From NCBI GenBank assembly GCA_963833425.1, contig CAWHXP010000008.1, forward strand, positions 1-64,000: a DNA stretch of 64,000 nucleotides, given 5' to 3'. Both the position numbers and the translations under genes were made by a program. Under the pieces are notes generated by a model that made no database searches, had not been told where the DNA came from, and saw nothing but the letters and a program-made list of their open reading frames with translations. Within the stretch, counting starts at the first letter, position 1; each line of letters opens with the position of its first letter. This DNA comes from an uncultured Methanosarcinaceae archaeon. Its GTDB lineage: Archaea; Halobacteriota; Methanosarcinia; Methanosarcinales; Methanosarcinaceae. This document shows, one piece after another, positions 1 through 34,356 of this stretch.

Positions 1-452
1 ATTTCATCGATGCATAGTTTTTGTGATAAAAACTGTGCACCTGATCTTAATTGATGCTCATTCATTTTTTTGTTACTATGAACCTAATAATGAATTCCAT
101 CAATAAGGTATGGGCTTATTATATGTAGGCTATGTCCATCAATCATGATATAACTCCATAAAACAAGTGGCTTTACAGCCATCATTTGGGTATTTAACAT
201 CTAGATTGCCCATAATTGATCGAATTGTAAGATAGGCTATCGGATGATTTTTTTTTAGTGTGGAATTTTTTTATTGAATTACTTTATGAGATTTGTGATT
301 TTACAAATAAATTAGCATACTTCTGACTTATTTAATACATACTCTAAGGCTATGTCCATCTCCGGGAATAATAACAAATAATTGATATTAAATTGTTGTC
401 CGATTTTCAAATATCAAGAAGCTTATTGAGAATTCCATATGGTATACACAGG

Positions 453-2549
453 TCAATAAAAATTCAAGAGCGTGATGAATAGCAGACTTCCCATGATGAC
501 AGGCCAGTACAGTACCTTCATGTACATGTTGTCTTTTGCATCAATAAAGGGGATACTCCGATTTGACGCAAAAGCTATTGAATTTATGGAAATAAATAAG
601 ATTGCAATGTACATTACAAAGTAGAAATACTCAAGGTAGATGATCCCATTTATGGGAAGTCTAGCTCTGAGAGAAGAGTGGGCAATGATAAGAGTAAAAA
701 GAATTGTGGTGCAGTAGCCAAGAACTCCATGAGAACTGAATCCGAAATGAATTTTGTTTTCACCCTTGGTAATTATCATAAGGATTGCAAATAGAAGAAC
801 GATTACTACTATTACAGGTAGAAGATCGGAATTAAATGGAGATTTAAAGTCCCTTTTGACATCAACGTTGAAGTGAAATTCCGGTATATTGGAATTTGCA
901 AAGTTCCCTAATCCAATATTGGTATTATTAGAATTAACCCTGTAACTGAAAAAGGTTTTTTGCGGCTCCCAGCCATCAAGCTTGAAAGAGGGTCCCAAAC
1001 CTGGAAGGCTTTCTGGAATCAAGCTATTATAGGAATCAAAGTCCGGAACCAAGACGTTTTCTGCAGAATTATTACTCAATAACCCGAGCCATACATCTTC
1101 CCTGTCAAAAGGATATTTTGAATAATCAAACTGCTGGTGCAGAGTAGTCTTAAAACGCCAGCCTATAACACCTTTGTTCCTATTCACATAAACTTTTTCA
1201 ATTATGGTTTCTTTTGAATCCGGAAAATAAAAGTCAGGAACATCCTTCCAAGCCCCTAGGCTTGAAATATTTTGCCAGATATATCCTGTTATTAAGACAT
1301 CATCAGCATTCAAGAACCCCATTGACTTAATAAAAAATCCTGTAGGAATCCTGGGTGTTGTCGAGCTCATATTGACGTGTTGCAACACCGTTTCAAAATC
1401 TTCCCTGTCGAAAACAACAAAGTCCCCATTCCTGCCATCAAGAGAAGAATTATTCATAGTAACGTGCCACATAAAGCCTATTCCCAGGATACAAAGTAAT
1501 GAAAAAATAAACGCGAGTGTCCAGAGTCCTTTATGGTCATACATGTAAATGGATACAAAAAGCAGGCACAGAAAGAATAAAAAAGCAAAAGTTGCGAACA
1601 CTACAAGAATAATAGAGTGGATCTGCCCTGTTTTTTTGTACAGCAAAGTTTCTTCCTGAGGAAGGACAAACCCTAGAGTCCAGTCTGTAGAAGGAATATT
1701 TTTTTGAAATACCCAGTAGGATTTCCCTGTAAAGGAATTTGTCGCCAAGTAATTCTGTTTTTTTATGTTCTCATTTATGAAGTAAAGATTGGGATCTTTT
1801 TTTGCAAGCTCGTGAATATTTCCATTAAGATACTCTTTGATGGGATAAGAAATAATTTCCCCTTTCCCAGAGATAATGAAACCATAACCCGTATTTCCTA
1901 TGCTGAGGCTATTTAGATATTCTCTTATTTCTTCAAGAGAGTGACTTACACTTACCACTCCTGCAGCTTTGTCCCTATTTCCGGATTCTGCAAAATAAAA
2001 AGGAGCCGAATAATCTATCTGATAATTGCGGTCTGCAATCCCGAAATAAGGTGAAATCCATACTTGGGATCCTTTTTTCAGGACATCATTGTACCATTCG
2101 GTTTGTTTACTGTCTTTCGTGTAATTATATGTGAGCGGAGCATATACGACTTCCGAACCATTTCGCTTGAAATGTGGTGCATAAAGTTTTCCGGCATTGG
2201 CAGCAGGAGAATATGCAACGACGATGCTAAAAATGTTTGGATTGTTCTTCATTTCAGTCAGAAGACGCTCCCGGAGTATGGAATCATTTTTTAGTTTTCC
2301 GGAACTTAGATCCTTTGCAACTCCATCAGCCAGGGAGCTAGTAGAATTATGTTCTGAATTAATGTTTTTTATGACAGAGTTGGCTTTTTGGAGCGCATCT
2401 TCCTTTGCATCTTCAAGAATTATTTCATTTGTCTGGCCACTTTTGTATTCATATCCTAAATGTATCAATAGCAAAAAACTAAGTAGGCAGAGTAGGGATG
2501 CAATACAAATTGCTTGTTTTCTACGTTTATTCGAGTTGGTCATTTTCAT
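453..2549 (-). CDS. Cache-domain-fused pentameric ligand-gated ion channel (prokaryotic Pro-loop receptor)-like membrane protein
   Basis: N-terminal TM, dCache motifs (WY...W..PY..., G.TGYGFII...G.IISYP), two TMs, beta-rich ECD with FDYSKYPFDRE (YPFD Pro-loop) and four C-terminal TM helices. Confidence 0.8.
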   Translation of the reverse strand: MKMTNSNKRRKQAICIASLLCLLSFLLLIHLGYEYKSGQTNEIILEDAKEDALQKANSVIKNINSEHNSTSSLADGVAKDLSSGKLKNDSILRERLLTEMKNNPNIFSIVVAYSPAANAGKLYAPHFKRNGSEVVYAPLTYNYTKDSKQTEWYNDVLKKGSQVWISPYFGIADRNYQIDYSAPFYFAESGNRDKAAGVVSVSHSLEEIREYLNSLSIGNTGYGFIISGKGEIISYPIKEYLNGNIHELAKKDPNLYFINENIKKQNYLATNSFTGKSYWVFQKNIPSTDWTLGFVLPQEETLLYKKTGQIHSIILVVFATFAFLFFLCLLFVSIYMYDHKGLWTLAFIFSLLCILGIGFMWHVTMNNSSLDGRNGDFVVFDREDFETVLQHVNMSSTTPRIPTGFFIKSMGFLNADDVLITGYIWQNISSLGAWKDVPDFYFPDSKETIIEKVYVNRNKGVIGWRFKTTLHQQFDYSKYPFDREDVWLGLLSNNSAENVLVPDFDSYNSLIPESLPGLGPSFKLDGWEPQKTFFSYRVNSNNTNIGLGNFANSNIPEFHFNVDVKRDFKSPFNSDLLPVIVVIVLLFAILMIITKGENKIHFGFSSHGVLGYCTTILFTLIIAHSSLRARLPINGIIYLEYFYFVMYIAILFISINSIAFASNRSIPFIDAKDNMYMKVLYWPVIMGSLLFITLLNFY

Positions 2550-3169
2550 CTCTTAAACAATCATTTAAGTCCCATCCAATAGCACTTTCTGTTATTGTAT
2601 TCTCCGTAGTCACATTACCTATTGTTTTATTCCCTATTAATTATTTTCAGATTGAGCAAATGTCGTCTGTCTTAATTACCATGCCGAGCAACATTCCAAC
2701 AAATAAGGAAGTTGTCTTCACTCCATGTTTTTATTTATATTTTAATCTCCATTCTTATAATCAAACTTAAAATCATTTTCGATTTTCGGATGGAACTAAG
2801 AAAATGCATAGATTTTGACACAAAAACTATGCAAAAATGAAATGACAAAAGCATAACTTTGTTAGCATAGCTATTGACTCTGCATCCTACTTTTTGCGGT
2901 GAAAGAAAAGGCTGAAGAGCCAGTCGTATTTCACAGAACTTTAGCTACACTATTAAAACGAACTACAAAAATTAAATGCAAAATCTGAAAAATAAAAATA
3001 TTTTGCGACAATGGTTGTTATCTTTAAAGTATGGAATTTGCTTATAATTTTTGAAGATTATACAAAAATAATTATAAAATAAAGCAAATATTAAAACGTT
3101 GTAATTTTTTAAGTTGTTTCATACAGGAATAAGCTCAACTTTATTAATATAAAACCAACGTTCAATGCC

Positions 3170-3285
3170 AAAATATTCCATAGTGAAATATTTTTTGCTC
3201 AGAAACTATTTTTTTATATAGTTAAATTTTATGACAAAGTAAATTTCATTCAGAAATTGTTTTTTGTATAATTAATTTAAAATAA
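3170..3285 (+). repeat. AT-rich intergenic module, copy 1 (others at 7197-7240 minus, 12928-12992 plus, 18438-18502 minus)
   Basis: Shared AAAATATTCYAT...GAA...TTTT..TCAGAAAYTATTTTTT...TAATTTAAAATAA. Confidence 0.65.
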
Positions 3286-3882: not shown

Positions 3883-4314
3883 AGTTTTATTTAATTTTGA
3901 AACCTTGATTCACGTACTTTACTTCATTTATTTTTAAATTCTATTACTTCTCATAAACTAGGTAATTCTAAAATCATAAAATTGCTTAGATCCCTATAAT
4001 TTTCTCTTAAATATTCTACGTTTTTATGCTCTAAATTTAAGTATAGCTATAATTTCGCAGATTATATACTATTTTTATTTAGACTGTTGCCAGTAAAATG
4101 CATAAGTTTTAACATAAAAACTGTGCATTGGTAAAAACGACAAATTCGATTTTGCAGAACTTTCGCAAAACCATTAAAATTATTATTAAAAAAATATTTA
4201 TATTTAGTTAAACGAATGTCATTTATAAAAAGTTAATATATCAATTTCAAAGAATTGTTGGAAGATCACTTTAAACTGTATTATATTGAATTGCAAATAA
4301 GGAGTTGGAGATAC

Positions 4315-5071: not shown

Positions 5072-6059
5072 TTACGATGACGGGAATATAAGTATTCTGA
5101 AATAACAGTCACAAAAATAGTTTCCCACAACATAAATTTGTTATGCAAAAGATGGATGTGCTGTATCCACATTGATGTAAAGCATCTGAAAATTCTGATG
5201 CTTTCATTTGGTTAAAATTGAACATAAGTACCTTTTTTCCCACTCTTAAGTTTGTGGGTGTTATGGTAATCATGCAAAAAAATGATAATGGAAATTTGAC
5301 GTTTAGAATATGCATGTTTTACATTAACACTTCTACATCCGTGGGAAAATAAGGAACAGAATATTTGTCAGTAAAACTATTGACTTTCTATTAATTTAAG
5401 TAATGATTAAATAATAATTTTCCTTTATTATGAAAATTTAGTTCTTTATCAACTAATTTGGATGAAATTACCATATTAGAAAGATATATTCTGTAGCATC
5501 GTGCTTAAAGTTCTGTTAAATCTGATTGACTCTACGTCCTTCTTCTTGCACCACAAAAAATAGGATTTATCGTTTTGCTGATGCTGAAGTCTTCATACAA
5601 AGACTATATATCAAAAACTGTCACAAGAATATGAATCTCCATTGAGTTAAATATCCAGGAATAATTATAATATTTTAGGATATTTAAATTGATAGTGCTT
5701 TTGTGTATGTTAAGTGGACTTTTTGTTTTGATGCTAGTGACTATATTAGCAAGTAGCGTTCTATTCTCCGCGTTGATGGGAATAATCTAACCTAATATAG
5801 AATTAGTTAAAAAAGCTAATTAGACAGTGGTTTTGTCACAAAAACTATGCATCAGTGAAAACGATAAATTATTTTTAAGGAGCTGATAATCCGCGTAAAT
5901 TCTGATTGGAACATCAAGATTGTTAGCTACATCCTTGACTTCATTCAAAAGTGCATTTATACAATCCAACACTTTCTTTTAGTAGGATCCCTAGAGCTAC
6001 AGTAGTCTCTTTCAGTATAGCTTCCCTCCACAACTTTCAAATAATGCTGTGAATGGTCT

Positions 6060-7086: not shown

Positions 7087-7700
7087 AATTATGTATATAA
7101 ATATATTTTTCTGATTAAAAGAGTAAGAATGCCTTTTTTATTTACTAATTTGTTGTTTCAGTATTTGATTCACACTTATTTATAATAGCTTTACAATTAT
7201 TTTAAATTAATTACACGAAAAATAGTTTCTAAACAAAAAACGATATCATATCAAATTTTTCACAATCAACAAAACAATTAAATATTTATAATGATTTTTA
7301 TTATTTTAGAAATCCTTATTCAATTGGATAATTATTTTCAATCCACACAAAGCCGCAAAAACCTGATTTTCACCTACGTGCCTGTAAACTCTATCATTCC
7401 ATATTAAATATGAATATACAAGTAGAATTGCAAGAGAGTATTTGTAAGGAATAAGTTCTATCAAAACGTTCAACACCAGATTGAAGAAAAGCTTCCTTTA
7501 TCAATGCGAAGTTTAAAAACTAGTAATGAAATTGTGAATTCCATTTTCCTGATCGAAGAGGTAATCTTTTATGAGTGTTATAAATAAGTAAAGATTTCAT
7601 ATCCCACCTTGCATAATGGGGAATAGTTCAAAAATAGTAATTTTAAAAAATACAAGCAGAATAAGCGCGAGATCACTACAACAGAACTAGGGGATTCAAC

Positions 7701-9842: not shown

Positions 9843-10096
9843 AATCCTGAGAACTGAAATATCCCTTATCGCTTCTTTTTAACTTCCTGATACTTGTTTT
9901 ATTAAACTCCCTAATTGTGAAGTTTTTCACTGATTTTGTAATCGAGCCAGATTTATTACAACAGGAGCAATTTTTTCATTGAAAGTTTGCTTCTAATATT
10001 TGTACTCTTTTTTCTAAATCGTCCAATTTTCTTCTTAAATTTTTACTATTCATTGCACGGGATAGACTCGTTCCACCGCAACTAGACACAAAATCC

Positions 10097-10481: not shown

Positions 10482-11672
10482 AAAACCAATTTATAGAAAT
10501 TTAGATAATATGTCTAAAATATAATTACATTATACATTTTCGATATTCTGACTGCTAAACAAACACCTAGCAAATATGAAAGAATTTTATATTAATTACT
10601 ATAAATTCCATTATAGTTTTTTTATTTTTAGATTTTCTGAAAGCAGTTGAATGTTTAACCTTCTGTTCTTCTGGACCAATGTTTGAATGTGAATTACTTG
10701 ATTATGCATAGGTTTTGCTATAAAACCTATGCATCAATGAAATAATAGGAATATAACTTTGGTAGCATAGTGAGTATAATTAGAAAATAAATATAAATTA
10801 TTTTAAATAACTATAATCATTATTAATGCAATTCAAATTTTGTGCCATTTTCACATGCAACATTTGTGTAAGATTAATGGTCTGGGAATTAATTTATAAA
10901 ACTATGGCCATGCATTAATTTGTTTAGGACTGTTGTTCTGGAAAACTGACGGACCAACGTTCCTGGATAATTTGGACTTCGCTTATTATAATTACATCTA
11001 CTTATTTACTTTTGTATAATGAATTGCACAGTTTTGTCTTCTGTATCCCTGAAGCGTTTCAAAGTTTAGTGTAGGACTAAATTATGAAATCGAAATTAGT
11101 AGAAATTATCAAAAATCAATGCCATATTATTAAAATAGGTATAAAAGTTTCCATCAACTCTCCACGAATAGTTTGTCAGTCTTAAATGTCTTCTCATCTT
11201 CTGTTCTATTTCAGGGGAATATTGATGCACTCATCTCATTATAGTACTGTGATCAACTTGAATTCCTCTTTCTATCATCATTTCCTTTAAATTTCTATAG
11301 CTCAATGGATATTTTAAGTACAATCTTACGTTTAATAGGATAATTTCTCCTTCAAAATGCTTCCATTAAAAGGAATTAAATAGAATATTACTATCTTTGG
11401 TTTTCTTTTTATTCTATTGTATCATTAGAAAGGATTTTTTGCAACGGAACCTTCGAAGTTATATACAAAAATCGTCAATATATGGCAAATTAATTAATAT
11501 AAAATTGTTTTTCTATTTAGTATTTTTTTATGTGGAAATAATTTTTGTTCACAAACTATTTTTCATATCATTAATTAGATATAAACTGTCTGGATAATTA
11601 GATATTTAACTGTGGAATTAACTAGCCAGTGAACGAAAAATACATGATTAATATTATTTTGGAGGGAATGAA

Positions 11673-14429: not shown

Positions 14430-14689
14430 TGATACTTGTTGTTCTCGCAAAAATCGGTGCCAGAATTATTTTTCAGCGGATTTGAGAAATGCACAGTTTT
14501 TGTGGTTAAATCTATGCATCAACGAAACCAAAAAAATCCTATTTTGTAATGAAAGAAAAGGATGGAGAACAGTCATTTTGACAGAACCTTCGATATACTG
14601 TCAAAATATTGAACCAATAAATAATAAATATAATGCAGCGTAGTATTACAAAAGAAGGATGGTTACTAATTGTTGATTTTGGTGGTATC

Positions 14690-15286: not shown

Positions 15287-15636
15287 TCCAACTCTCATGA
15301 ATGCACAGTTTTTATAGCAAAACATCTGCGTTTTCCAATTTAGCGACCGCATGCATACAATTCTATATTTAGTTCTGGTGCCTTATGTTTACTAGGGCCT
15401 GCAGCATGAGTGCTTAAAACGCATTATTTCAGCGTGGAATTCTAATGTGTAGTTTTTTTCCTGGCTATAATCGCTATAGCTTTTAATTCTACAGAAAATT
15501 ATGCACACTGCTTTTTATTGCATTTTACTATTAAATTTCACAGGTTAATCGAGCCTTAATTTTAAATATGGAATACAAAATATATTACATTACTAATTCC
15601 GCGATTTATAGCTTAAATTCAGGACCATGAGGCTAC

Positions 15637-16316: not shown

Positions 16317-16882
16317 AGCTTTCTTTTAAAGAGATGAGAGATCTGACAGGATAGGCTTCTGTAGAACCTAATCATTCTTCTTTGGCGATTATTATGCCTA
16401 CAATAATGTTGATAAAAAGATAATAAAAAGCTAAAAAGGTCACCCAACACATGCTCAATTACAATACGATGGAATTTGGGTTAAGGGTCTTAATGTTGCA
16501 AAGATGAACTATTATGGAAATCAAACTTCATCGTGAATTGGAAAGGTTGATACTATTGGCGATGCACACCAACAGTATCTAATTTACTGTATGAGGATTT
16601 GTTTGTCTGTTCGACAAAACAATATTTGTTCTAATCCATTATAAACTTTTTTTATAAGTGATTACCCTTTTAGATACACAGGTTTAACATGATAATCTCT
16701 GCATAATATTTTCTCAGAAAGCAGTAAAAAAGCTCCTAAACTCTACGAAGCCTCGAGATAAGGAATTATATATTTGTTAACTATTCATCATATATATTCC
16801 TAAATTGCCACTTATTTCGGTAAATCTTCTTTTAATTTTTTGCAATGGAACCGGCGTGATATTTTCAGGAGCTTTGTTGCCT

Positions 16883-17332: not shown

Positions 17333-17801
17333 TTTTTAAATCTATCCAAATAAATTTTCTTCTGTTAATATATAATAATATAGCTTTTATATGAACATAT
17401 TGTATTTTATTTTGACTGTTCTAAAATAAACACATGATTTAGTCTCCTCTGCTTGCATATGCCTGGAACCTTATTTATTAATGATCCGTGGGTTATTATC
17501 AAAAATAGAAGAATCAAAAAACACATAAGTAATGTGGAATGCTGAGCGAATGCAGTCAATATTTCACAATATTTAAGAAGCAGTGGTCAATGCTAAAGTG
17601 CAACTTTTTAATACACAGTTTTTGCTATAAAATATATGTATCAATTAGACATATTATCAATTTTATCATGTATATTTTGCAACGGAACCAAGTAAAAATG
17701 AACAAATTGATACGACATGTGAGTTGAACTGACTATATACTCTTTAAGTCTAGAAATCCAGGTTCAAGAAAACGATTTTATAGGCGGACTGTACCTCATT
17801 A

Positions 17802-18425: not shown

Positions 18426-19315
18426 AAACATTATATTTTATTTTAAATTAACTCTACAAAAAATAATTTCTGAATAAAAATTACTTCAACATAGAATATT
18501 TTGAAATTGAACAACAATTTAATATCAATCATATTATAATTGTAAATAAAAATATAAAGATATTCTTAAGCCTTTAAATCAGCTCATATTGCTACCTGGA
18601 TTAAGAGTCGTTTCTTCGTTTTTTCCAGAACTATTCAAACACTTTATAAAGGAGAGCTAGATGAATCTCTTCGAGCATTACTCAAAGAAAAAGACTCCAT
18701 TATTTTTGGAAAAGCAGAATAAATTTTTTTATGACAATATAATTGATCTAACTCTCATAAATGCACAGCTTTGTGTATAAAACCTATGTATTTTTCTACT
18801 TTTTCAGCCCAAATCATGGGATATTTTTACCTAATTGTGCAGGAAATACGTTGTTTTTTTTAAAATATATGCTGTATTAAAACGCCAAAAAGTTGCTGTA
18901 CCCATATTCTTCGTGTTTTACAAATACTAATTCAGATAGAAGCTATCTTTTTCATATTTACACATTCCAAAAATTAACATTAACCAAAGATTAGAAGATA
19001 GAAGACGATCAATTTTTCAGATCAATTATTATTTCTAAAATAGTTATGACCTACATGAAAAAGCAAAATAAGATTAATCGAATATTATATAGACTTCTTT
19101 TGTGGGAAATAGCTTCTTGGATAAATTATATAAAGTGCAAACTCACTATTAATTTATATAAAGTTTATGTTTTTCAAAATATCACTATCTATCTAACGTA
19201 TACTGTACTTTCGCTAAACTCTGACTTCTTAAAAGCAGATTGAAGGATACGTACCACGGGAACTACTGTCATATAATTTTCATATATTATAATATCAGAA
19301 AAAGGGTTGAAATAA

Positions 19316-21052: not shown

Positions 21053-21619
21053 AAAATTTCCTATTCTTTTTTAACTAAATCATTCCATCAGTGCGGGAAT
21101 ATGCATATTTTCATCGATTTATCACGGTAAATTAAAAAAATTATTAGAAACTCATAGGTAAAATTGAAAAATTCACTTGATATCTATTTTTGTTTGCCAC
21201 AAAAATAGGATTTATCGTTTTTTACTGATTCAATGTCTTATAGCAAAATCTATATATCAATTAAACAGTAGAAACATGACTTTGCAGCATAACCATCAGC
21301 TTTAAATCCTGCTTTTTTGTTAAGAAATACATTTGAAAGCTTACCTTGAAATGTTCAGCGGTTTTGCTTCCAATATCTCTTTTCATTTCTCACCAATATG
21401 ATCCATCTCCAGTCTAGCGATTCATCAGTTTTTTTAGGTGGTCTGTATGTTGATATAGGGGATTTTGTTGCTACAATTGATTGTGTTTCAAGGGGTTGTA
21501 CTTGTTCTACAACCGGTAGTGCTAAAGTAGTTGTTTTTCCAATAAGGGCACGTAAATCCAGTCTCATAGAGTAGCAAGATTATACACCTATTTTTATAGT
21601 CAGAATATAAGCACCGCTG

Positions 21620-22396: not shown

Positions 22397-24205
22397 ATGA
22401 ATCCTAAAGATAGAATTAATATATTCACTCGACAGTATGACCAATTTTTAAATGCTTATTTAATGTTCATAGTTATTTTTTTATATCATTTGCTTTTCAT
22501 ATTTCAGGGACTTGATCTAACAGATTTTGGATACCATATGACGCATCAGGTATTCTCATTTACCTTATCACCTGATGTAAAATGCATAGAGCCTATGTTT
22601 TATCTAACTGATTTTATAGGAGGAATGTGGCTTTCTTTAATTGGGCATCCAAATGTTCTATGGGCAAGATTGGGGGGAGTTTTTCTTGAAGCTCTGAATG
22701 CTGCAATTATTTTTTCTATCTTAAAAATCTATTTTGAAAAGGAAAAAGTTTTTTTTGTTGTATTTGTATCAAGTATATTTGTGTCTATATATCCACAAAT
22801 GTATATTCATTATTTTACATTTCCAGCTTTTTTGATCAACCTTGAGTTGTGGATATTCAACAGAGTGATTTTATTTGATAGTGAGGTTAAAAAAAGTAAC
22901 ACATATAGTTTTTTTCTAGGGTTCATGGCACTTCCAATAATCCTGAGTAGAATCACTCTACTGCTAATATTTATTATTCCTATACTCTTTATTATTTATT
23001 ATTATGCGAGGGAAAAAAACGTTTTGTGCTTCAAAAAAATTATTTTTCCTACTATAATAGGAATCTTTTTTTCTATTATTTTGTTTGGGTTCTTTTTATG
23101 GTACTTAGATATATTTAAATATTATTTTTCAAATATTGCCGAAAATATATTTTTATCAACAAGGAATGTTACAAATAAATATTCTTTAGCTTCTGGACAC
23201 TCAATGGTACAGTTAGTTAATAGTTATTTATCTGACTCGAAACTAATAATTACTAATTTATTGAACTTGATCGTTAGCATTTATATATTATCAATTATAA
23301 AAGAACAAATTGGGAAAAGAAAACTTAATACGTTAGTAATATTATTGACGTGTTTGACAATTTTATATACGAATTTGTTTGCTATCCCAGATCATGCTAT
23401 CGTTCTATTAAATGTTTTTATTGGAATAATCATTGTTTTAGCAATCATATATTTTGCATTTAATAAATTGATGAATGAAAATATAGATTTGTTATTAATT
23501 TCAAGCATAGGAATTATGGTAATTAATCCAATCGGTTCTGATGGGGGGTTATTTAAGGCAGTTTATGGAATGTGGTTAGCATTACCTCTTGTATTGCTGT
23601 GTATCTGTAAAATAAAAACAGATATTAAATATACAAGAATTTCATCAATGTTATCTTTAATACCGATACTACTTGTTTCTTTATTATGTTTTTCCATTTT
23701 TTTTAATATCACCTATATTAATTATCTAGACGATAAGACCCGTTTGGACTTGAATACAGAGTTTTCAGATCCATCACTTAAGGGATTATATTCTACAGCT
23801 GACAGGGTTAAAGCTGTAGATGAGCTTATATATCAGATAAGAAAACATACTGACAAAAATGACGAAATTTTAATAGCTAATAACATCCCAACATTTTATT
23901 ATCTAACAGAAACAAAACCGTCATTTGGAAATCCATGGATTGAATCATTACCTCTTGATGCGACAAAAGAAATACAGCGAGAATTAGAGGAAAAAAAAGA
24001 ACTACCAAAGTTATTTATTTATAGTAGGGTGAGTGGAATGGATCATAGATTTCCAAACGCAGATATCAAAGATAATGAAGATGACAACGATAATGAAGAT
24101 ATTATTAGGCTTAGATACTTAAAGAACCGATACGCTAATGATTTGAACTATACTATTTTATGGGAAAATAAAAACTTTGTAATATACAATCATTCTTCAA
24201 TGTAA
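22397..24205 (+). CDS. Multi-pass membrane protein, GT-C glycosyltransferase-like
   Basis: About 12 TM segments, GLDLTDFGY after TM1, soluble C-terminal domain with P.FYYLTE.KP. Confidence 0.65.
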   Translation: MNPKDRINIFTRQYDQFLNAYLMFIVIFLYHLLFIFQGLDLTDFGYHMTHQVFSFTLSPDVKCIEPMFYLTDFIGGMWLSLIGHPNVLWARLGGVFLEALNAAIIFSILKIYFEKEKVFFVVFVSSIFVSIYPQMYIHYFTFPAFLINLELWIFNRVILFDSEVKKSNTYSFFLGFMALPIILSRITLLLIFIIPILFIIYYYAREKNVLCFKKIIFPTIIGIFFSIILFGFFLWYLDIFKYYFSNIAENIFLSTRNVTNKYSLASGHSMVQLVNSYLSDSKLIITNLLNLIVSIYILSIIKEQIGKRKLNTLVILLTCLTILYTNLFAIPDHAIVLLNVFIGIIIVLAIIYFAFNKLMNENIDLLLISSIGIMVINPIGSDGGLFKAVYGMWLALPLVLLCICKIKTDIKYTRISSMLSLIPILLVSLLCFSIFFNITYINYLDDKTRLDLNTEFSDPSLKGLYSTADRVKAVDELIYQIRKHTDKNDEILIANNIPTFYYLTETKPSFGNPWIESLPLDATKEIQRELEEKKELPKLFIYSRVSGMDHRFPNADIKDNEDDNDNEDIIRLRYLKNRYANDLNYTILWENKNFVIYNHSSM

Positions 24206-24440
24206 AATATCTCGGCAGTGTACCGAAAGTTCTGTAAAATCCGATCGACTATATACCCTTTTCTTTGCCACAAAATATAAGATATATCGTTTTACTGACG
24301 CACAGGTTTTTATAGCAAAATCTATGCATTTTCTAGTTATTCAGCAAAAGTGTTGCAAATCAGGCACAGAGCATTTCTCCACAGCTATAAATAAAATCAT
24401 ATGGATATTATTTATACCATAAAAAGGAGACCACCACAGA

Positions 24441-24659
24441 ATGAGAGTGTTTACTGTCGTCATCGAGCAGGACGAAGATGGGATTTACATAGCTTCAGTT
24501 CCAGAACTTTCTGGATGCCATACCCAAGCTGAAACGCTTGACGAATTGAACAGAAGAATTAAAGAGGCAATCGAACTTTACATTGAAGTTGAAGCCCAGA
24601 AAGGGGAAGAAAGACATCTGGATTTCATCGGAATACAGCAAGTTAAAGTTGAGATTTGA
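24441..24659 (+). CDS. hicB: HicB-family antitoxin
   Basis: VVIEQDEDG.YIASVPEL.GCHTQAETLDEL..RIKEAIELY. Confidence 0.9.
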   Translation: MRVFTVVIEQDEDGIYIASVPELSGCHTQAETLDELNRRIKEAIELYIEVEAQKGEERHLDFIGIQQVKVEI

Positions 24660-24900
24660 ATGAGTAAAAATTACCTCTTCCTGCAAAAAAAGTTGTAAAA
24701 GCACTTGAAAATATTGGTTTCGAGCAGATGAGACAAAAGGCAGCCACTTATTTTTACGCCATCCAAAAGGAAGAACCACGATAGTCCCGACGCATCCTAC
24801 CGAAAAAATCGGAAGGGGAATGATCACCAAAATAATAAAAGATGCAAAAATTACACGGGATGAATGGGTTGAATTGATAAAAAGCCTCATTCTTTTCTGA
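24660..24900 (+). pseudogene. hicA: HicA-family toxin, frameshifted
   Basis: Reassembles to ...PAKKVVKALENIGF..RQKGSHLFLRHP.GRTTIVP.H....IGRG....IIKDA. Confidence 0.85.
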
Positions 24901-25376: not shown

Positions 25377-25719
25377 TATATCATCTCCATCACATTTATT
25401 TGAAGCTGCTTTTCTTTAAACATTTATTATATCTGCTTCAGCTAAAAATATTGGTTGTGGTGTATAAATAATACTTCCGCAGTTTGATACTATAATTATT
25501 ACCTTTGTGTATCTTTTTTCCGGTGATGAAATTGATTAACTCTCCTAATTGTGAATGTTTATACTGATTTTGTAACAAAACCAGACTTTTTACACCAGAA
25601 CCATATATACTCCTAAATTTCTACTTATTTCAGTAAATCCCACTCATAATTTTTTGCAACGGAACCGAAATATTTATTGATGTTCCGACTTCAGAGTTCG
25701 GAAATTGGGTTATTCGGAA

Positions 25720-27104
25720 CTACTGTGTATAGGTAGTGATTTTCGTCATGAGAAGGTCCCGCTCCCTATTGGCTATTCCAGTGCTATATCGTTTTGCGAA
25801 ATCTTTTGCCGTAGCAGGGTCGCTGGCATACATCTTCATTAACGTCTCTTTAATGGGATCATATTCCCTGAAAGATTGCTCTTCATAGTCTCGCCACAAC
25901 TCCTCGACAAGGAATTTATATTTATCATGGTTTACTTTGCAGAGTGAATAGAGCCCCCTGAAAGACCAATAGGCGACAACGGACTGTACTGATTTCCTTC
26001 AAGGCTAAAACCGGGAGGAATATCACCCATATTGCTATATAGTGGGAGGTAGGGTGCGCCCATAGGGGTGCTTACAACCTGCCATATCAAACCTTTTAGC
26101 TCCGGAGGCATCTTTGGATCAAGAACCATGATATGGCTTTCAGCCTTCCTGTCCACCCCAATCGCCCGCTTCGCTTTGCCTTCAAGCTCCGTTCCCTTGT
26201 AGGTGGCCCGTAGCACGTTCATAACGTCCCGGACATGGATTTTTTTGTCCGGCTTGAGAAAAAGCGGATACTGGTATTCACGGGGTTTTTGTTCCAATGA
26301 AGGAGTATGGATTTTTTGGGCGAGCCATATGCGATCGACATTAGTAGGATCACCGGGAACGCCAAAGGCTTCGGCAAAGTTAAAGTTATGCCGGTCAGGT
26401 GCCTCAAGCAGTTTGTATTCGCAAACAAATTCAAAGAGTTTTTTGAATTCAGAACATCTTCGTTGTCAAGATCAACAGAGTGCACCCTCATATCGTTTGC
26501 CACTAAGAGGTATGAATCTTCGGGAATTTTAACAGCAATCCAGTGATGACATGATCCTATCTCAAAGTACATGACTCATCGGAGTCGCCTATTAAAATAC
26601 CGTTCACCTCGCTTGCGCCATACTTCTCTACATATCTGCCAAGAAGTTTTACCGCCTCTTTTGCCGATTCAACCTGCGGCAGAAGAAGGATTTGTATTAC
26701 CGATTCAGCAATGCCTCCCGAAGCGAGCAGAGGGTCGAAGCCTCTTGCTTTATCATTAATGGCAAGGGAGTTTGTCGCGGAAATGGCAACATTTCGTTCG
26801 TTAATACCACGCTCTTCAAAGAAAAAATGTCTTACGATAGCGTATTTTGCCTCTTAATAAACCGCAGCTTCCGGCATTGCGTTATATCGGTACATTTTTT
26901 GCGGGACAGAGACTTTCAGGCCGTTCCCAAAGTCCAGACATTATCCGAAACAGCGGCGTTGCCGTTTTGCTTGTTGTAGTACTCCGGAAATGGACGAAAG
27001 ACCATATATTTATTCCAGTTGTTCCGAGTATAGTCTTCATTTTTGGACAGCAAAATTGTTCCGTCGCATGTCGCTTTTTTGCCTGCCAATAAGCTTGTGT
27101 ACAT
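25720..27104 (-). pseudogene. C69-family dipeptidase, multiply frameshifted
   Basis: M(Y)TSLLAGKKAT.DGT..LSKNED (nucleophile Cys2 reads Tyr), HHWIAVKIPEDSY..VAN, YPLFLKPDKKI...DVM..LR. Confidence 0.85.
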
Positions 27105-27180
27105 ACTCTCACCTTTATCAATAAGACGAGAGGAAGCGTCGCAGATTTTTCACGACACTCCCCTCATCCCTTGGGTTTTG

Positions 27181-28457
27181 TTATTTAACGATGGCCAGTT
27201 TTGAGTTAACGAAAAGATTGTACGCATTCATTCTCGGCGTATTGTCATTCGGCAAATCAAATTCAATATCCGCCCCCTTTCGGAAGAAGAGACAATACGT
27301 TGAACCGCCGAAGTGGAATGTTCCGATATTTTGGCCTTTTGTGACCTTTTGACCTTCATAAACCTGTATGTCGCAAGAAGAGATCTCTGCCATGCCGATG
27401 GGCATAAAGCACATGAGGCCGATCTTTGGATTTTCGGCCTCGATGAAAATAAGCGCCCGCGTTGCGACTTCGCTTATATACCCTGTGAGTCATTTGGCGC
27501 AGCCGAGTCATAACCTTCCGTGGGGGTCTCGGAGTAATACGTCCCGTCAATGATCTTTGTTTTAACAATCCTCCCCGATACAGGGCTGTGCCATTGGTGG
27601 AAGCTTTTGGCACTCAAAAATGCCTGATAGGCAGAGCCGCCCACAAGCTGTTCGGTTCTCTCGTCACAGTCAAGCATATGCACAAGGGAGTATGGCTGCC
27701 CTTTGATCCAAAACTTTGTGCGTAGTTATACTTCATCATCACTCTATGCAATTTTATATGGAGAGGATTCACAGGCGTTAATAATGATTGAATCATCACC
27801 CTTTCCGGCAATTGGACGCTTTCCGTCCCGGAATTTCCTGGTGAAAAAATAGTCTCAGCAGGCAAAGCCGTAATGCGGTTTTTCCGGGTCACATTTAAAT
27901 GTCTCGATAAACTCTGATCTCGCCTTGTCATGCTCGCCGGGTCTAAGGATGCGGTTTTTCGTCCTTTTGATCGGGTTTTTTCCGCCAATAGGACATACTT
28001 TGAGTCCACAGATTTCAGGAACGTCCCCCAATGGTTCAGCACCTTCTTGAACTGTACGTTTAGTTTGTTATTAAGGAACGTCGCAAAATCGCCCTCAGTG
28101 CACATCGCCCAGTCTAGAATCGCGTTAATCGGAAAACCAATACAGCTGGTGTCGTTATAGGTCGGGGATTTTGTCATTATGTTGTTCAGCAGATCTAAAA
28201 AATGCTTGTAGTCTCTCATCTGTTTTCCATACACGCTATGTTCATACTTCTTCGGCACCTGGTCGAACATCATGGTTACGAGCGCGTAATTTCAGCGTCT
28301 GATTCAATAAGCTCCTGAAGCTCCTGTATGACCGGATGAAATGGCTTTTTTTCAGTGTCTACTTCGTCGATGAGATCGGCCAGCCAATATTAAAATTTTT
28401 CTGATCAGAGGGGAGCCATTCTCCAATCCGGTATTGTGCGGTTTTAGTCTTTTCCAT
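27181..28457 (-). pseudogene. Phosphatidylserine decarboxylase-like (PsiD/PSDC-type) pyruvoyl enzyme, frameshifted
   Basis: YRIGEWLP, GFPINAILDWAM.T, YQAFLSA.S(F)H.WHSPVSG, GMAEISSC, FHFGGST. Confidence 0.85.
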
Positions 28458-28469
28458 ACATTTTCTCCT

Positions 28470-29861
<1,392 letters not shown>

Positions 29862-30047
29862 ACATATCTCCTTTGTTGGTTCCTTTGCAAAAAAAATTCT
29901 GTAATTTGACACTATAATTTTCACATTTATGCTATTTTATACCAAATAAAAATGATTAATTCCCTAATTGTGATATTTTTATTGATCTTGTGAAAAAGCC
30001 AGATTTTTTGAACGGAACCTACATAGATTTGCTATATAAGCTCTGCA

Positions 30048-30197
30048 GGTTCCGTTGCAAAAATAATTTTTCTGTACTTTGAGGATATTATAATTTCCTT
30101 AAATGCTGTTTTGACCCCAGTTTGATCACTAAAATTGCCTTATTGTGAAGGTTTTCAACGATTTTGTAAAATGTTATGATTTTTTTGCAACTGTACC
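30048..30197. mobile_element. 150-bp MITE with IS6-type TIRs
   Basis: GGTTCCGTTGCAAAAA ... TTTTTGCAACTGTACC; internal similarity to 10097-10245 in reverse orientation. Confidence 0.7.
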
Positions 30198-30231
30198 CCT
30201 GTATACATATCCGATATCGCTAGTCTTCGTT

Positions 30232-31960
30232 TTAATTCATCAGAAATTTAGACCATCCAATGTTGCCCATTTTTAAAGTTCTTGCATTTATAGCCACGAT
30301 TACGGTACTTAGACTCATGAGAACGGCACCCGTCTCAGGGTTTAGTAAAATTCCGTATCCATAGAGTACCCCAGCAGCAAGGGGAATTGCAAAAACATCG
30401 TATCCAGTTGTCCAGAGAAGGTTTTGATACATCTTGGAATAAGTCCTTCTGGAAAGCGCGATGATATTCAGTACATCCCTTGGATCGTTTTTAACCAGTA
30501 CGATATCGGCTGTTTCGACTGCAACATCCGTAACTGCTCCGATAGCAATTCCGACACCAGCTTGGGCCAATGCAGGGGCATCATTAACTCCGTCCCCTAC
30601 CATTCCTGTGATATACTGCTTTTGAACTTCTTTGACTTTCTCTGCTTTGTTATGAGGAAGAACTTCTGCGAAGTAATCGTCAAGTACCAGTTCTTTGGCT
30701 ACCCAGGCAGCAACATAATGGTTATCCCCTGTGAGTATGATACATTTTATTCCCATGCCTTTGAGCTTCGATATAGCTTCCCTCGATTCCTGCCGGATAA
30801 TATCCCCAAGAGCAAGTGCTCCAAGAACTTTATCACCCTCGAGCAGGAACAAAAGGTTTTTCCCTGTTCTTTGATTTCTTCAATTTTTTCGTCTCTAATG
30901 ACAATTCCCTTTTCTTCAAGGTACCCCGGGCTCACAACAAGGAATCGTCTTCCTTCAACCACCCCTTCTATCCCCTTCCCGGGGATTGAACTGAATTCAT
31001 CCACATAACTAGTTTCAAATCCTTTTTCCTGTGCGCTTTCCAGAATACCTGCTGCAATAGGATGTCCAGAACTGGTTTCTAAGGAAGCCGTCAGGCTCAG
31101 GATAGTTTCTTTTTTCTCTCCAGAAAGAGAAACTATATTCGTGACCCCGAATCTTCCTTCAGTGAGGGAGCCTGTCTTGTAAAAAATGAGAGCCTGGGGA
31201 TTACGTGCACTTTCAAATGTCTCTCTTTCTTATAAGAAGCCCGGATTTTGTAGCAATAGATGTTGAAACTGCAATCACAAGAGGAATTGCAAGCCTAAGA
31301 GCATGTGGACAAGTTATTACCATTACAGTAACTGCTCTCTCCAAGGCAAAGGCAAATTCTCGGCCAAATAAAATCCAGAGAATGAAAGTGAGAGTTCCCT
31401 AAGTCAGAGCTATGATTGTAAGGTCCATTGAAGCCCTATTCGCCAAGTTCTGGGTTTTTGATTTGCTTTCCGTGGGCAGCCCTGACGAGCTCGACAACCT
31501 GGCTCAGATAGGCATCTTTCCCGGATTTTTCTATCTTTACCACGAAAACTGCTTCCCCGTTAATAGAACCACCTATAACCTTATCTTCCGGTTTTTTTTG
31601 TGATAGGTTTAGACTCTCCTGTAAGCATTGATTCGTTGAAGCTACTTTTTCCTTCTACAACAGTCCCGTCCACAGGCACTTTTTCTCCGGGCTTGACCAA
31701 AACCGTATCCCCTATTTTTAGTTGGTCAATACCAAAGTCAACGATTTTTCCGTTATTTTTCAGATGAGCAACCACCTGCATTATTTTTATAAGTTCCTCA
31801 AGGGCTCTTGAATCCCCCATTACTGAAGCATCTCTAGCCAGTGCCCGAGAAGCATTATGTAGATAAGGGTTACCAATTCCCAGGAAAATACTCCTCCTTG
31901 ATCTTCCGAATGATCATGATGCAGCGTATTTCCAGCAAGTTTATGCCCACTTTCTTCATG
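30232..31960 (-). pseudogene. copB: Copper-translocating P1B-type ATPase (CopB-like), disrupted
   Basis: TGES, CPH, YKTGSLT (catalytic Asp lost), GDGVNDAPAL; several frameshifts. Confidence 0.9.
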
Positions 31961-32745
31961 AAATTAATTCGAATTTTAGGATAAATCATTTATACTCTGT
32001 TCTCTTCAGCTTGCGTATCCACTTTCCCATAATTTTTAATGGAATAAAAAAATTATAGCTTCTTTAATACCAGAGAATTTAAATAGACGGTTTTGTGAAG
32101 CTACTATTTTGTCTTATGGATAGTAGAATAATTATTACGAAAAGAGATATTATTTAACTTTTTACTTCTGGAGCGATGCAACGAGAATCATTTATTTTAC
32201 TGATCAGGAATAAAGGGTTTTGGGATAATTCTATCAAATTCAGGAATATTTTTTAAAGAATTCTCTTGTGCAAATCCAGGCAGGTTGACTACAAATTTTA
32301 ATCTGTATCCATAAAATTAATCTATTAGACGACTATTTTTTATTATCTACACAGTTCTTATTATCTTTTCAATATTTGCTAAAAATTTAATTGTAAAAAC
32401 TTGTACATTCTTATAAAACTATAGAAAGCGAGTTATCAATATTTAGCTCGAAGAGTTCTGGATTTGTAGCAGTTTCTACTAATTTATAGGGAATCGATTC
32501 TATTAATGGCTTTTAGCACTAGATTGATGAAAGGCTTCCTCTTATTTAAAAGTTTAAAAACCACGTAATTAGCTAGTGAATTCCATCGTTCTGATCTATA
32601 ATAAGATATTTCTAAGTGAGAAAATATTATTTATTGACTCTGCACATTTTTTCATGATGGAAGATTAAAGGATACAGAGTCAAACAAATTTTACAAAAAT
32701 TTCCATGCACAGTCAAAACTTCTTTGATGTGCCAAACGTAGTAAT

Positions 32746-33408
32746 CTACTTGTTAAGTTCAATCGCTTTTTGATATGCTTTTCTGGCTTCATCGTACTTG
32801 CCTAAGTTCGCAAGAGCTGCGCCTTCTTTGTTCCAAGCATCTGGATTTTTAGGATCAAGTCTCACGGCTTTGTCGTATGCTTTCAACGCTTCATCGTATT
32901 TGCTTTGTTGAGAAAAAGCGTCTCCTCTATTGTTCCAAGCTTTTGAATCTTGTGGGTTGATTTCAGTTGCTTTTTGATATGCTGCCATTGCTTCATCCGA
33001 TTTGCCTAATCTCTCTAGAGCTTCACCTTTGCCGAGCCAAGCCGTTGAATTCTGTGGATTAGTTTCGATAGCTTTTTCATACTTTTTTATTACTTCATCT
33101 GATTTTGTTACATTCTGTGGTTTAATTTTATATGCTTTTTCGTATGCATTTGCTGCTGCATCGGATTTATCCAAATTATCTAGAGCAACTCCATTATTTG
33201 AATCTTGCATCATTTTTTTACTATAGTTTGATAATGAGTCATCGAGTTTATTGAAATCAGTTACAACGTTTCCTTTATTATTTCTAAACATTGAATCCTG
33301 CGTCGCGCCTGCGATACTCACTAAGATTAAAAAAGTTACCACAGTGATGCCTAAAACCGTTATAACGGTATGCCTTTTACTTGCTTTATCATATGTTGCT
33401 TTTTTCAT
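32746..33408 (-). CDS. Secreted/anchored tetratricopeptide repeat protein
   Basis: Hydrophobic N-terminus; AW..KG..L..LGK.DEA..AY.KA..INP repeats. Confidence 0.9.
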   Translation of the reverse strand: MKKATYDKASKRHTVITVLGITVVTFLILVSIAGATQDSMFRNNKGNVVTDFNKLDDSLSNYSKKMMQDSNNGVALDNLDKSDAAANAYEKAYKIKPQNVTKSDEVIKKYEKAIETNPQNSTAWLGKGEALERLGKSDEAMAAYQKATEINPQDSKAWNNRGDAFSQQSKYDEALKAYDKAVRLDPKNPDAWNKEGAALANLGKYDEARKAYQKAIELNK

Positions 33409-34356
33409 TTTCAGTCTCCTGGTAGTTTTTATAGATTAATGACGGAAAACTACTAAACAAATATACAATGTTAATACATCTTTCTATAAATTAAACATTT
33501 CTACTTAAAAATTATATTTTGTAATGTATTAAAATAACTTTGTATCATTTTCTTTGCAGAACCTCTCAAATGCTTCAATTCTACTACATTCTTTCAAATT
33601 TCAAGGCAGATATTCAGAAAAGAATTCAGTCTGAATGCAGAGACAAGCCAAGAAAAGCTACATTGTAAGGTTGAACATAGCTATAAAAAGCAATGATGAA
33701 TTGATTTTGGCAGTGTGCCTAAGTTCTATAAACATGATCGGTTCTTAATACCTTTCTTTTGCAACAAAAAACAGAATTTAGAGTTAATGTTCTACTGACA
33801 AAGTTTTTGCGTCAAAATCTATGAATTTCTTAGTTCCATCCGAAATACAGAAACCTTTTCAAATCTAAGACTCGAGAGCTTATGGAACCCAAAGAGCATG
33901 TGTAGCATATGGAGCTCATGGAACACTTGAAAATGATGAACTAGATTATAATCATAACAGAAAATTTCATAACAGAAGATTTCAGAAATAAATATGTATA
34001 GTGCTTCTGAACAATACTAAAAGCAAGAATAAATTGAATCAGAAAGTTATTTTTTCTGTACCATAGTCTAACTTAAAAGAGTTAAAAATAACTCTATCCA
34101 TTTACGTTCAGTATAAAAAACTTCTTACTATGTTTTACTACACTATTTTATATTAGGATTTCAGTGGCGTATTAATCTTTCACTCACAAAAGAATCGCTG
34201 ACATTTTTCGCAAGATCCGGACTAATTACTATATATACTATTTATCCAAAGTTATTCCTATATTGTATATATACACAAAATAGATATTAAGTCATTTTCA
34301 GCTAATCTATTACGATTCATAAGTACGCTACCAACAAAAAACCCTAAATGAATTGT

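Follow-up and report, generated by a model that had tools for sequence, protein, structure and literature searches.

Repeated 29-base palindromes between the genes of a Methanosarcinaceae archaeon: apparent sites of a small tyrosine recombinase family

The window, the whole 64-kb stretch of DNA analysed here, comes from an uncultured Methanosarcinaceae archaeon and carries genes on both strands. A preliminary description of the DNA had labelled several of these genes from the sequence. Pfam confirmed the MNT-HepT, NDT/TIR-like and FIMAH labels, but the supposed ion channel (ORF 453-2549) is a dCache sensor protein, and no window ORF matched a methyltransferase or GT-C family in Pfam. Much of the region from 20 to 32 kb consists of frameshifted pseudogenes, and other repeat families abound in the window. 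As had been stated, no recombinase gene was found in the window.

The repeated 29-base palindromes between these genes are real. Fifteen positions had been listed for the motif TGCAYAGNTTT-N7-AAANCTRTGCA, which is matched nine times in the window at no more than three mismatches versus zero expected, since none of 100 dinucleotide shuffles held a match. A relaxed scan (TRCAYAGNTTT/AAANCTRTGYA, up to four mismatches, spacers of 6 to 8) adds 5823, 24299 (8-bp spacer), 30020 (6-bp spacer), 33797 and a weak match at 61027, giving a total of 14 sites. Positions 5582 and 21228 were matched in neither motif scan, but the profile of a longer repeat places a degenerate palindrome exactly at each (5613-5483 and 21259-21182). 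By motif scans and profile together, each of the 15 listed positions is a member of one family, although the consensus as first stated fits 13 of them and not these two. Across 104 sites the centre is constrained to the symmetric consensus T(88%)-R(94%)-Y(75%)-N-R-Y-A. The form TGCTATA/TATAGCA, previously read as an asymmetric spacer reused six times, is the commonest version of this centre (13/104 sites). When other genomes were scanned with the motif, the family recurred: among the matches listed, 78 of 103 loci bear Methanosarcina-type labels. The 25 bacterial-labelled loci among those listed are mostly singletons, and three of the 25 hold Methanosarcina-like DNA. No Rfam family matches the palindrome.

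Table 1. Palindromes, repeat copies and related DNA in the window
Feature	Position	Strand
Matches to the original motif (at most three mismatches)	11, 2805, 4099, 10705, 14490, 15302, 16675, 17612, 18762	
Palindrome only, exact consensus match	11..39	
Full repeat, palindrome 2805-2833, then body, then conserved far block; ~35 bp insertion	2800..2959	+
Palindrome 4099-4127 and part of repeat body	4094..4157	+
Full repeat, degenerate palindrome 5582-5610	5483..5613	-
Palindrome 5823-5851, left arm degenerate, and part of body	5823..5875	+
Exact palindrome 10705-10733 and start of body; L019 homology stops at right edge	10701..10755	+
Full repeat, palindrome 14490-14518; far block ends 22 bp before ORF 14633-15286	14484..14611	+
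Solo palindrome, three mismatches; 15 bp past stop of ORF 14633-15286	15302..15330	
Solo palindrome; three mismatches to strict motif, two to relaxed	16675..16703	
Palindrome 17612-17640 and part of body	17609..17692	+
Solo palindrome	18762..18790	
Degenerate palindrome 21228-21256 and part of body	21182..21259	-
Best full repeat of the window, palindrome 24299-24328, 8-bp centre	24203..24335	-
87% identical to L048:1045-1536, just downstream of the small recombinase gene of L048; recombinase gene absent	24410..24900	-
Degenerate palindrome, 6-bp centre	30020..30047	
Remnant, body and far block only; ends 24 bp before stop of ORF 32746-33408	32648..32722	+
Full repeat, palindrome 33797-33825, left arm degenerate	33700..33831	-
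Far-block-only remnant, right half	48523..48589	-
Repeat lacking outer palindrome arm, right half	51418..51524	-

The palindrome had been described as a bare 11-7-11 site, and the repeat to which it often belongs was missed. Many copies are the terminal part of a ~130 bp repeat made up of far block, body and palindrome, and 45 full copies of that repeat occur across the window and related loci (Table 1 for the window). The far block is the second conserved part of this repeat. The right half of the window lacks full sites, as reported, but it is not free of the family, since it holds a truncated repeat, a remnant and the weak match at 61027. Individual copies differ in their surroundings. In the best full repeat, there are 11 bp between the stop of ORF 22397-24205 and the start of the far block. 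Two IS6/IS240-type repeat copies (29878-30019 and 30048-30198) flank the palindrome at 30020-30047, their outer ends facing it. The L061 orthologue of site 17612-17640 abuts the same NDT-like gene flank without 107 bp that are present in the window.

The sites lie between genes, as originally noted. None of the window sites is inside an ORF of at least 100 aa, and 3 of 135 are when 61 related loci are added. The single ORF whose stop was placed 15 bp before the next site is likewise as described. Sites are found in every type of intergenic region, including beside core genes, and in related loci they also flank housekeeping genes (AdoMet synthetase, hisG, queC and sod).

The sites are linked, both physically and in their specificity, to a dedicated tyrosine recombinase family, each intact gene copy of which is preceded by two sites. 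ORFs of 159-209 aa that match PF00589 cluster beside the sites, with scores of 33.8-35.6 bits compared to a curated cut-off of 27.1 (L002, L034, L048 and L074); the frameshifted L051 copy had no PF00589 match at the thresholds used. The recombinase, of ~200 aa, is essentially a catalytic domain only. Genes or fragments for it occur at 12 of 78 distinct Methanosarcina-type loci, which is not a genome-wide rate because the loci were chosen through the palindrome. The window itself retains DNA that flanks the recombinase gene in a relative (24410-24900). All six subfamily-A copies that retain an N-terminus have a full palindrome 94-122 bp before the ATG and a second palindrome, with a shorter centre, over a TATA-like centre ~26 bp before the ATG. 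The far block of the repeat is also found upstream of the distal site at three recombinase loci (L006, L074 and L095). A tblastn search from the protein alone located the gene on five Methanosarcina plasmids, and in 3/3 plasmids examined a palindrome of the same architecture occupies the same place upstream of it. The plasmids carry only such gene-adjacent sites. The outer arm sequence co-varies with the recombinase subfamily in three arm types: subfamily A pairs with TGCAYAG arms, subfamily B (~50% identical) with GCTACG arms, and the plasmid subfamily (~63% identical) with CRTCAGG arms. Dispersed copies of arm types B and C were not found in the sequences at hand.

All 20 recombinase sequences compared have R55, K142-x-x-R145, H168 and Y177, whose catalytic roles are read from the order of the motifs. 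An AlphaFold model (pLDDT of 90.2) was matched by Foldseek with a probability of 1.00 to XerA (4a8e and 5hxy), XerH (difH-bound), IntI (2a3v) and the Tn1549 integrase, at query TM-scores of 0.57-0.63. The PF00589 score, catalytic residues and catalytic-domain fold place the protein in the tyrosine recombinase/phage integrase superfamily, and with residues and predicted fold intact it looks active. It is not XerA, the host enzyme once suggested to serve the sites: scores of 19.5-21.7 bits fall far below the NCBIfam XerA equivalog cut-off of 220, and the alignment covers only positions 94-257 of the 263 in the profile. All 120 homologues listed, of 223 found, are 193-273 aa in length, within a search range of 110-352 aa.

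The preliminary description had proposed comparing breakpoints with the sites. Between species, blocks of homology stop inside palindromes far above chance, with 14/119 HSP ends between genomes falling inside a site, whereas 200 randomisations averaged 1.35 and never exceeded 6. Each HSP was counted in both directions, and the 14 ends represent 6 locus pairs and ~5 independent junctions. A PAS histidine kinase unit (L005:1688-4029 and L061:628-2964, 91.7% identity) is enclosed by sites and has neighbours that differ between the two genomes, and its homology stops exactly at the palindrome at L005:1688. A hexapeptide acyltransferase unit (L005/L036/L071) also lies between sites in differing neighbourhoods. 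Both units thus show the same module between sites in different contexts, as pdif-like gene shuffling predicts. Also in favour of junctions at the sites, the centres of orthologous site pairs are 51% identical and their flanks 84-92%. However, the arms give no sign of a crossover in the centre: by a hand count of six such pairs, the arm beside the homologous flank (52/66 positions conserved) is no better conserved than the outer arm (57/66). The sequences analysed yielded no circle, hybrid site or other recombination product. Beside a site on the Kolksee plasmid, a GH18 indel has its edge ~45 bp away from the palindrome, and a second site is lacking. An IS6-type repeat also bounds a homology block, at 10245 of the window, and since other repeats do so, any dispersed repeat could resemble a junction.

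The palindromes look like DNA sites of a small and so far unstudied family of recombinases, whose genes lie elsewhere in related genomes, and this family may move and reshuffle gene-sized blocks. There is perhaps an even chance that they are the cognate sites of Methanosarcina-specific recombinases of ~200 aa and that the window is a site-rich, decaying accessory region, whose blocks were joined, moved or inverted by a recombinase with its gene on a plasmid or in another part of the genome. The original interpretation, a cassette array served by a recombinase in trans, is therefore partly supported. One monomer would bind each 11-13 bp arm (TGCAYAGNTTTT), and two occupied sites would then synapse. 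Strand exchange would take place somewhere within the T-R-Y-N-R-Y-A centre, at cleavage positions presumably contained in it, with the DNA between sites inserted, excised or inverted as the outcome. By integration of this kind, a plasmid bearing the gene together with one site could move into chromosomal sites and out of them again. The second, promoter-overlapping site before each recombinase gene may mediate autorepression.

Several other explanations bear on the same evidence. Because the palindromes are part of a longer repeat, MITE-like spread is a live alternative, and a MITE-internal palindrome had been suggested from the start. The existence of the longer repeat fits this suggestion, but inspection by eye revealed no target-site duplication or matching termini in the 38 copies with placeable ends of 41 tried, features that mark a MITE in the sense of a non-autonomous derivative of a DDE transposon. 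A selfish or relic repeat is a serious rival, if a rather unlikely one. The ~130 bp unit would be the upstream control region of the recombinase gene, spread or left behind in intergenic DNA, with sites that serve only as operators, no cassette function, and rearrangements that are a by-product of dispersed repeats. Such an origin is consistent with the 45 full copies, with the shared far block at L006, L074 and L095, and with the overlap of the promoter-proximal site and the TATA-like centre. Copies also grade from full to decayed in a window rich in other repeat families and pseudogenes, the orthologous pairs give no sign of central crossovers, and the plasmids have gene-adjacent sites only. 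It is harder to reconcile with the lack of target-site duplications or terminal inverted repeats in the 38 placed copies, and with the many solo palindromes that still keep their arms without the rest of the repeat. A solo palindrome of 29 imperfect bp is a poor substrate for homologous recombination, yet homology stops exactly at one (L005:1688). Moreover, the arms are conserved over many species amid surrounding intergenic DNA that cannot be aligned.

Two further explanations take the palindrome as a signal or a folded structure. It is quite unlikely to be a transcription signal, either a bidirectional terminator or 3'-end element or an ordinary dimeric transcription-factor operator, conserved as part of each gene unit. 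Sites are closer to stops than to starts (22/101 stop-side versus 6/93 start-side distances are 100 bp or less), and among the far blocks of full repeats, ten have a convergent stop no more than 100 bp away and one has a start at that range. Each arm contains a run of four to five T, a T-run often follows the site, and transcription in archaea terminates at oligo-T. On the other hand, divergent starts flank 22 of 97 classified sites, and the distribution of classes mirrors that of all intergenic gaps. The conserved 7-bp outer arm is superfluous for a terminator, and the paired sites before recombinase genes and the subfamily-linked arm changes would be left unexplained. A folded single strand, in the form of a hairpin of DNA or RNA comparable to integron attC or the REP elements recognised by HUH transposases, is very improbable. 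An inverted repeat with 11-13 bp arms would suit a hairpin, and complementary combinations are in weak excess at two of three variable arm positions (p = 0.048 and 0.005; p = 0.63 at the third). Yet RNAalifold predicted no base pairs for the palindrome alignment, and arm pairing (86.1%) does not exceed that of shuffles (86.6%). The N position is non-complementary in 58 of 102 sites and the arms are perfectly complementary in nine, while on the oriented strand G-U combinations are about as common as A-C ones. Sequence is conserved rather than structure, the reverse of attC, and the linked enzyme is a tyrosine recombinase rather than an HUH protein. With a symmetry of the double strand and no strand-specific pairing, the sites act like targets of a protein on duplex DNA and not like hairpins, in keeping with the original interpretation.

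The apparent recombinase sites can be compared with several known systems. The linkage of XerS and difSL is described in PMC2731167. Like XerS/difSL and XerH/difH, the Methanosarcina system has a single tyrosine recombinase encoded beside its own palindromic site, and XerH-difH is among the best structural matches. Unlike those full-length two-domain enzymes, which resolve dimers at one site per replicon, the Methanosarcina enzyme has ~200 aa and many sites. Archaeal XerA/dif, with one site per replicon, was rejected since the window alone contains 14 sites. Archaeal integrons are reported in PMC9668308. Integrons also have a tyrosine recombinase gene with an adjacent site and gene arrays separated by related sites, and integrase structure 2a3v matches the Methanosarcina recombinase. 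In contrast, attC conserves a folded structure for single-strand recombination and the Methanosarcina sites conserve sequence, not pairing. An integron was rejected because window genes have both orientations and no recombinase heads the array, though other loci do have recombinase-adjacent sites. According to PMC3733652, RAYTs are HUH enzymes that act on hairpins tagged GTAG or CGTC. As in REP/REPIN and RAYT systems, an enzyme gene of low copy number has beside it the short palindromes that also occur dispersed across the intergenic DNA of the genome. A REP/RAYT system was rejected, given that there is no hairpin signal and no GTAG/CGTC tag in the consensus, and that the flanked gene belongs to PF00589, not PF01797.

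The pdif modules of Acinetobacter plasmids have dif-like sites and are served by XerC/XerD. In both systems, gene-sized modules, among them toxin-antitoxin pairs, are set apart by short core sites with a pair of inverted arms, and the same modules recur in different contexts. The recombinase works in trans, as is proposed for Methanosarcina. Methanosarcina differs in having one small dedicated recombinase instead of the housekeeping Xer pair, identical arms, a symmetric centre of 7 bp versus 6 bp in pdif, and sites that are found on chromosomes and plasmids alike, often within the ~130 bp repeat. Genome rearrangement is well known in Methanosarcina. A genus-wide recombination network unrelated to integrons is a tentative possibility, in which catalytic-domain-only recombinases would act in trans on chromosomal and plasmid sites, each subfamily through its own 7-bp arm, would move single-gene modules between plasmid and chromosome, and would drive genome rearrangement. 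FimB/FimE-type invertases and the R64 shufflon recombinase Rci also rearrange DNA between sites, and they resemble the Methanosarcina system as small tyrosine recombinases or as one recombinase with many repeated sites. Their action is local, at a single switch or gene cluster, whereas the Methanosarcina sites are spread over the chromosomes and plasmids of the whole genus.

The palindromic sites of the window, 29 bp long with 11-bp arms of TGCAYAG type around a 7-bp centre, belong to one family. The proposal that they are recombination sites is partly supported, and the recombinase linked to them belongs to a genus-specific family of small enzymes, whose genes carry the sites. The strict motif gave nine matches in the window at up to three mismatches, versus none expected from 100 dinucleotide-preserving shuffles, and a simple count at up to four mismatches gave 16 raw matches versus 0–2 in mononucleotide shuffles. 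A relaxed scan located 14 sites, 13 within 11–33825 and a weak one at 61027. The preliminary description had listed 15 positions. Two of these, 5582 and 21228, failed the motif and were recovered only by a profile of a longer repeat (below), but they coincide exactly with the palindrome that this profile predicts; all 15 listed sites are thus true family members. Their intergenic position also held, with no window site in ORFs of at least 100 aa and only 3 of 135 sites so placed over the window and 61 related loci. The centre, previously taken as a free asymmetric spacer, instead follows the consensus T-R-Y-N-R-Y-A (104 sites), so the symmetry continues through it, and TGCTATA/TATAGCA is simply the commonest variant (13 of 104). 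Rfam at gathering thresholds returned only a tRNA, and ARAGORN identified one tRNA-Leu.

Often the palindrome sits at the end of a longer unit, an approximately 130-bp repeat that was overlooked in its description as a bare site. A moderately conserved body follows the palindrome and leads to a strongly conserved far block of about 27 bp. The window contains five full repeats and one without the outer arm, in addition to several copies with a partial body, two remnants of the far block only and several solo palindromes. The best-preserved window repeat directly follows a 602-aa ORF (22397–24205). This ORF, like those at 14633–15286 (217 aa) and 7701–8540 (279 aa), had no Pfam match at an E-value of 0.1. 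The right half, earlier reported to lack full sites, has few family members but does have some, at 48523–48589 and 51418–51524. No target-site duplications were seen beside copies of the long repeat. A promoter function for the repeat was rejected, since its copies face both ways with respect to the adjacent genes.

A recombinase emerged from the loci that share the palindrome. When 285 ORFs of at least 100 aa from 61 loci were clustered, the two largest clusters were repeat proteins and the third consisted of short proteins that match the phage-integrase family above the cut-off. Whole genes or fragments of this approximately 200-aa recombinase were found by tblastn in 12 of 78 distinct Methanosarcina-type loci, all chosen through the palindrome. 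As previously stated, the window encodes no recombinase: tblastn with the small recombinase found none there. The segment 24410–24900 retains DNA that in a relative is located just downstream of the recombinase gene. In all six subfamily A copies with an N-terminus, a full 29-bp palindrome lies 94–122 bp upstream of the start codon, and a second palindrome with a shorter, TATA-like centre ends approximately 10 bp (about 50 bp in one lineage) before it. In loci of the L048 type the TATA-like centre precedes the ATG by about 26 bp, the spacing that archaeal TATA boxes usually keep from the start, which suggests that the second palindrome serves in autorepression.

Since these loci had been chosen through the palindrome, an independent test was run starting from the protein. 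A tblastn search of a plasmid collection found the gene on five Methanosarcina plasmids, of which three were examined; plasmid pC2A, whose SsrA is described in PMC9569500, was absent from the matches. The M. barkeri 227 plasmid has only two type-A sites in 39.6 kb, at 28068 and 28150, and both precede the gene (ATG at 28203). The Wiesmoor and Kolksee plasmids encode a recombinase approximately 63% identical to the query, and the corresponding position there holds arms of a third type, CRTCAGG. Likewise, the recombinases of two related loci, L034 and L051 (subfamily B, about 50% identical), have palindromes of the same build with GCTACG arms in the same two places. Three arm types accompany three subfamilies, and this co-variation of arm sequence with recombinase subfamily is the strongest argument that the protein reads these sites. 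Type-B palindromes were absent from the window and numbered four in the 103 listed loci; a search for dispersed type-C palindromes found them only beside the plasmid genes. Type-B palindromes at L062:4095–4119 and L038:4138–4162 are about 100–140 bp from type-A ones and adjoin subfamily-B gene fragments; both places have the appearance of degraded recombinase loci in which the two types of site come together.

The recombinase is not the host XerA, one of the two kinds of enzyme that had been suggested to act on the sites. It scored 19.5 bits against the XerA equivalog, with a cut-off of 220, and aligned to the catalytic half only. A sequence search of the PDB with the profile of the family found no match. 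A confident structure model resembles XerA, XerH on difH, integron integrase and Tn1549 integrase. R55, K142-x-x-R145, H168 and Y177 are invariant. The protein is thus a divergent recombinase consisting essentially of the catalytic domain. A protein search limited to lengths of 110–352 aa found 223 relatives; the 120 listed are 193–273 aa long, some named as site-specific integrases of M. barkeri or M. mazei. There was no match in the phage collection.

Among the loci listed, the distribution of the sites is largely methanosarcinal. A scan of 185,579 species genomes found at least 103 loci, which do not include the genome of the window itself. Of the 103 listed, 78 are labelled Methanosarcina, Methanosarcinaceae, Methanosarcinales or Methanobacteriota, and 25 carry bacterial labels, mostly as single matches. 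Three of the latter (L018, labelled Smithella, and L048 and L049, from a contig labelled Patescibacteria) carry the long repeat, the small recombinase or a stretch that matches the window at 87% identity, and so are probably mis-binned archaeal contigs. The source organism of the window is itself a methanogen of the Methanosarcina group: the window encodes methenyl-H4MPT cyclohydrolase (62981–63946), and genome bins of Methanosarcinaceae match it best at the DNA level, with 87–91% identity. Related loci have a layout like that of the window; in L005, sites at 503, 1688, 4001, 5704 and 6650 are separated by one gene per interval.

A palindrome could be conserved because a single strand folds into a hairpin or because two half-sites are bound in double-stranded DNA. 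The hairpin was rejected on pair counts. RNAalifold predicted no pairs in 29 oriented full repeats, and with a 13-pair stem imposed, 86.1% of cells pair versus 86.6% in shuffles. At each of the two R/Y positions wobbles and mismatches are about equally frequent (7 vs 9). Among 102 distinct sites, the arms are perfectly complementary in nine and the N position is non-complementary in 58. Of the three variable positions, two show a weak excess of symmetric combinations (p = 0.048 and 0.005) and the third shows none (p = 0.63). In our reading the arms are conserved as two half-sites for a protein that binds as a dimer, some of them being alike through common descent or homogenisation, and not through selection for a folded strand.

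Catalysis by the enzyme at the dispersed copies is so far inferred. The main rival explanation holds that these copies derive from the control region of the enzyme, either as inert relics or as selfish copies. Whether the sites behave as junctions was examined by comparing genomes. When loci of different genomes were aligned by BLAST (at least 500 bp and 75% identity), 14 of the 119 alignment ends that no locus edge cuts fall inside a site, compared to a random mean of 1.35 and maximum of 6 in 200 trials; the 14 come from six locus pairs, and every alignment enters the count in both directions. A PAS histidine-kinase unit is the clearest case (L005:1688–4029 and L061:628–2964, 91.7% identity): homology ends at the outer palindrome edge on both sides, and the neighbours differ between the two genomes. 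A hexapeptide-acyltransferase unit starts at a palindrome in L005, L036 and L071, with unrelated far sides. Homology of the window with L019 stops at site 10705, and with L061 at the start of the L061 site, where the window has 107 extra bp. Other repeats likewise bound homology blocks. At "orthologous" sites the centres are 51% identical and the arms 81%, with flanks at 84–92%, which is consistent with site turnover. By hand count, the arm beside the conserved flank scores 52 of 66 versus 57 of 66 for the outer arm; this lack of difference means that a crossover in the centre cannot be demonstrated. The observation itself stands, and the earlier interpretation is partly supported in a more specific form, with a genus-specific family of small enzymes, not XerA, as the linked recombinase.

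Several individual rearrangements were considered. The plasmids were compared for a cassette insertion at the gene-adjacent site; the edge of a GH18 indel between them is about 45 bp from that palindrome, with no second site visible. A clean insertion upstream of the dCache gene was rejected, as comparison of the window with loci L041 and L001 shows a replaced segment. The window and L061 differ in a manner that suggests an inversion or insertion of approximately 12–14 kb starting near site 17612; its second breakpoint could not be placed at a site.

If the sites are active, archaea would have a second way to exchange genes as modules, next to the archaeal integrons described recently. It would depend on sites that are read by sequence in double-stranded DNA and on a recombinase of unusually small size. 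Active sites would also offer a concrete explanation of why methanosarcinal genomes are so extensively rearranged, in the words of the title of Maeder and colleagues (2006). A compact recombinase-site pair with three natural specificities could then become a genetic tool in methanogens. Direct tests of the proposal are feasible, since genetic methods exist for Methanosarcina and the protein is small. No description of the motif or the recombinase family was found in the portion of the literature searched, outside subscription journals and supplements.

The left half of the window is a decaying region. It contains the MNT-HepT pair, the NDT/TIR-like gene and the FIMAH gene, as named in the preliminary description, together with frameshifted pseudogenes of peptidase C69, phosphatidylserine decarboxylase and a P-type ATPase, a truncated old-yellow-enzyme gene and a broken DDE transposase. 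The three frameshifted genes are minus-strand remains within 25700–31950, where G+C is 0.42–0.46 versus approximately 0.30–0.35 around it; L061 has an apparently intact region that matches the ATPase part at 81% identity. The palindrome family is interspersed with several other families of intergenic repeats.

Repeat features of the window
Feature	Window coordinates	Remarks
Far block of the long repeat (example)	24216–24242	~27 bp
~150-bp repeats	9900–10245, 25453–25602, 29878–30198, 41356–41409	common ~16-bp terminus
IS240-family element, two copies	41423–42167, 52824–53566	84–93% identical
IS240-family partial copy	11146–11451	inverted
A+T-rich intergenic repeat family	3181–3285, 7193–7307, 11494–11584, 12888–13052, 18438–18538, 48687–48778	~100 bp, both orientations
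~100-bp repeat, two copies	48868–48967, 59652–59755	94% identical, partly self-complementary

The terminus of the ~150-bp repeats recurs just upstream of an IS240/IS6-type transposase gene (41427–42071), and the repeats look like non-autonomous derivatives of that insertion sequence. Two of them have their outer ends turned towards the degenerate palindrome at 30020; on the M. barkeri 227 plasmid the distal site directly adjoins a similar terminus (L104, ~28050). In the second IS240-family copy the transposase gene is split (52828–53169 and 53193–53471). The A+T-rich family also occurs in several related loci, and the self-complementary repeat has a weaker relative at 43973–44018. A pentapeptide-repeat gene at 44141–44781, with a 15-bp DNA periodicity over 19 registers, is apparently split into two ORFs. 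The genes for an MFS transporter (46870–48495) and a PEP-utilising enzyme (38636–39915) each appear to be split into at least two ORFs, indicating that gene decay is not limited to the left half.
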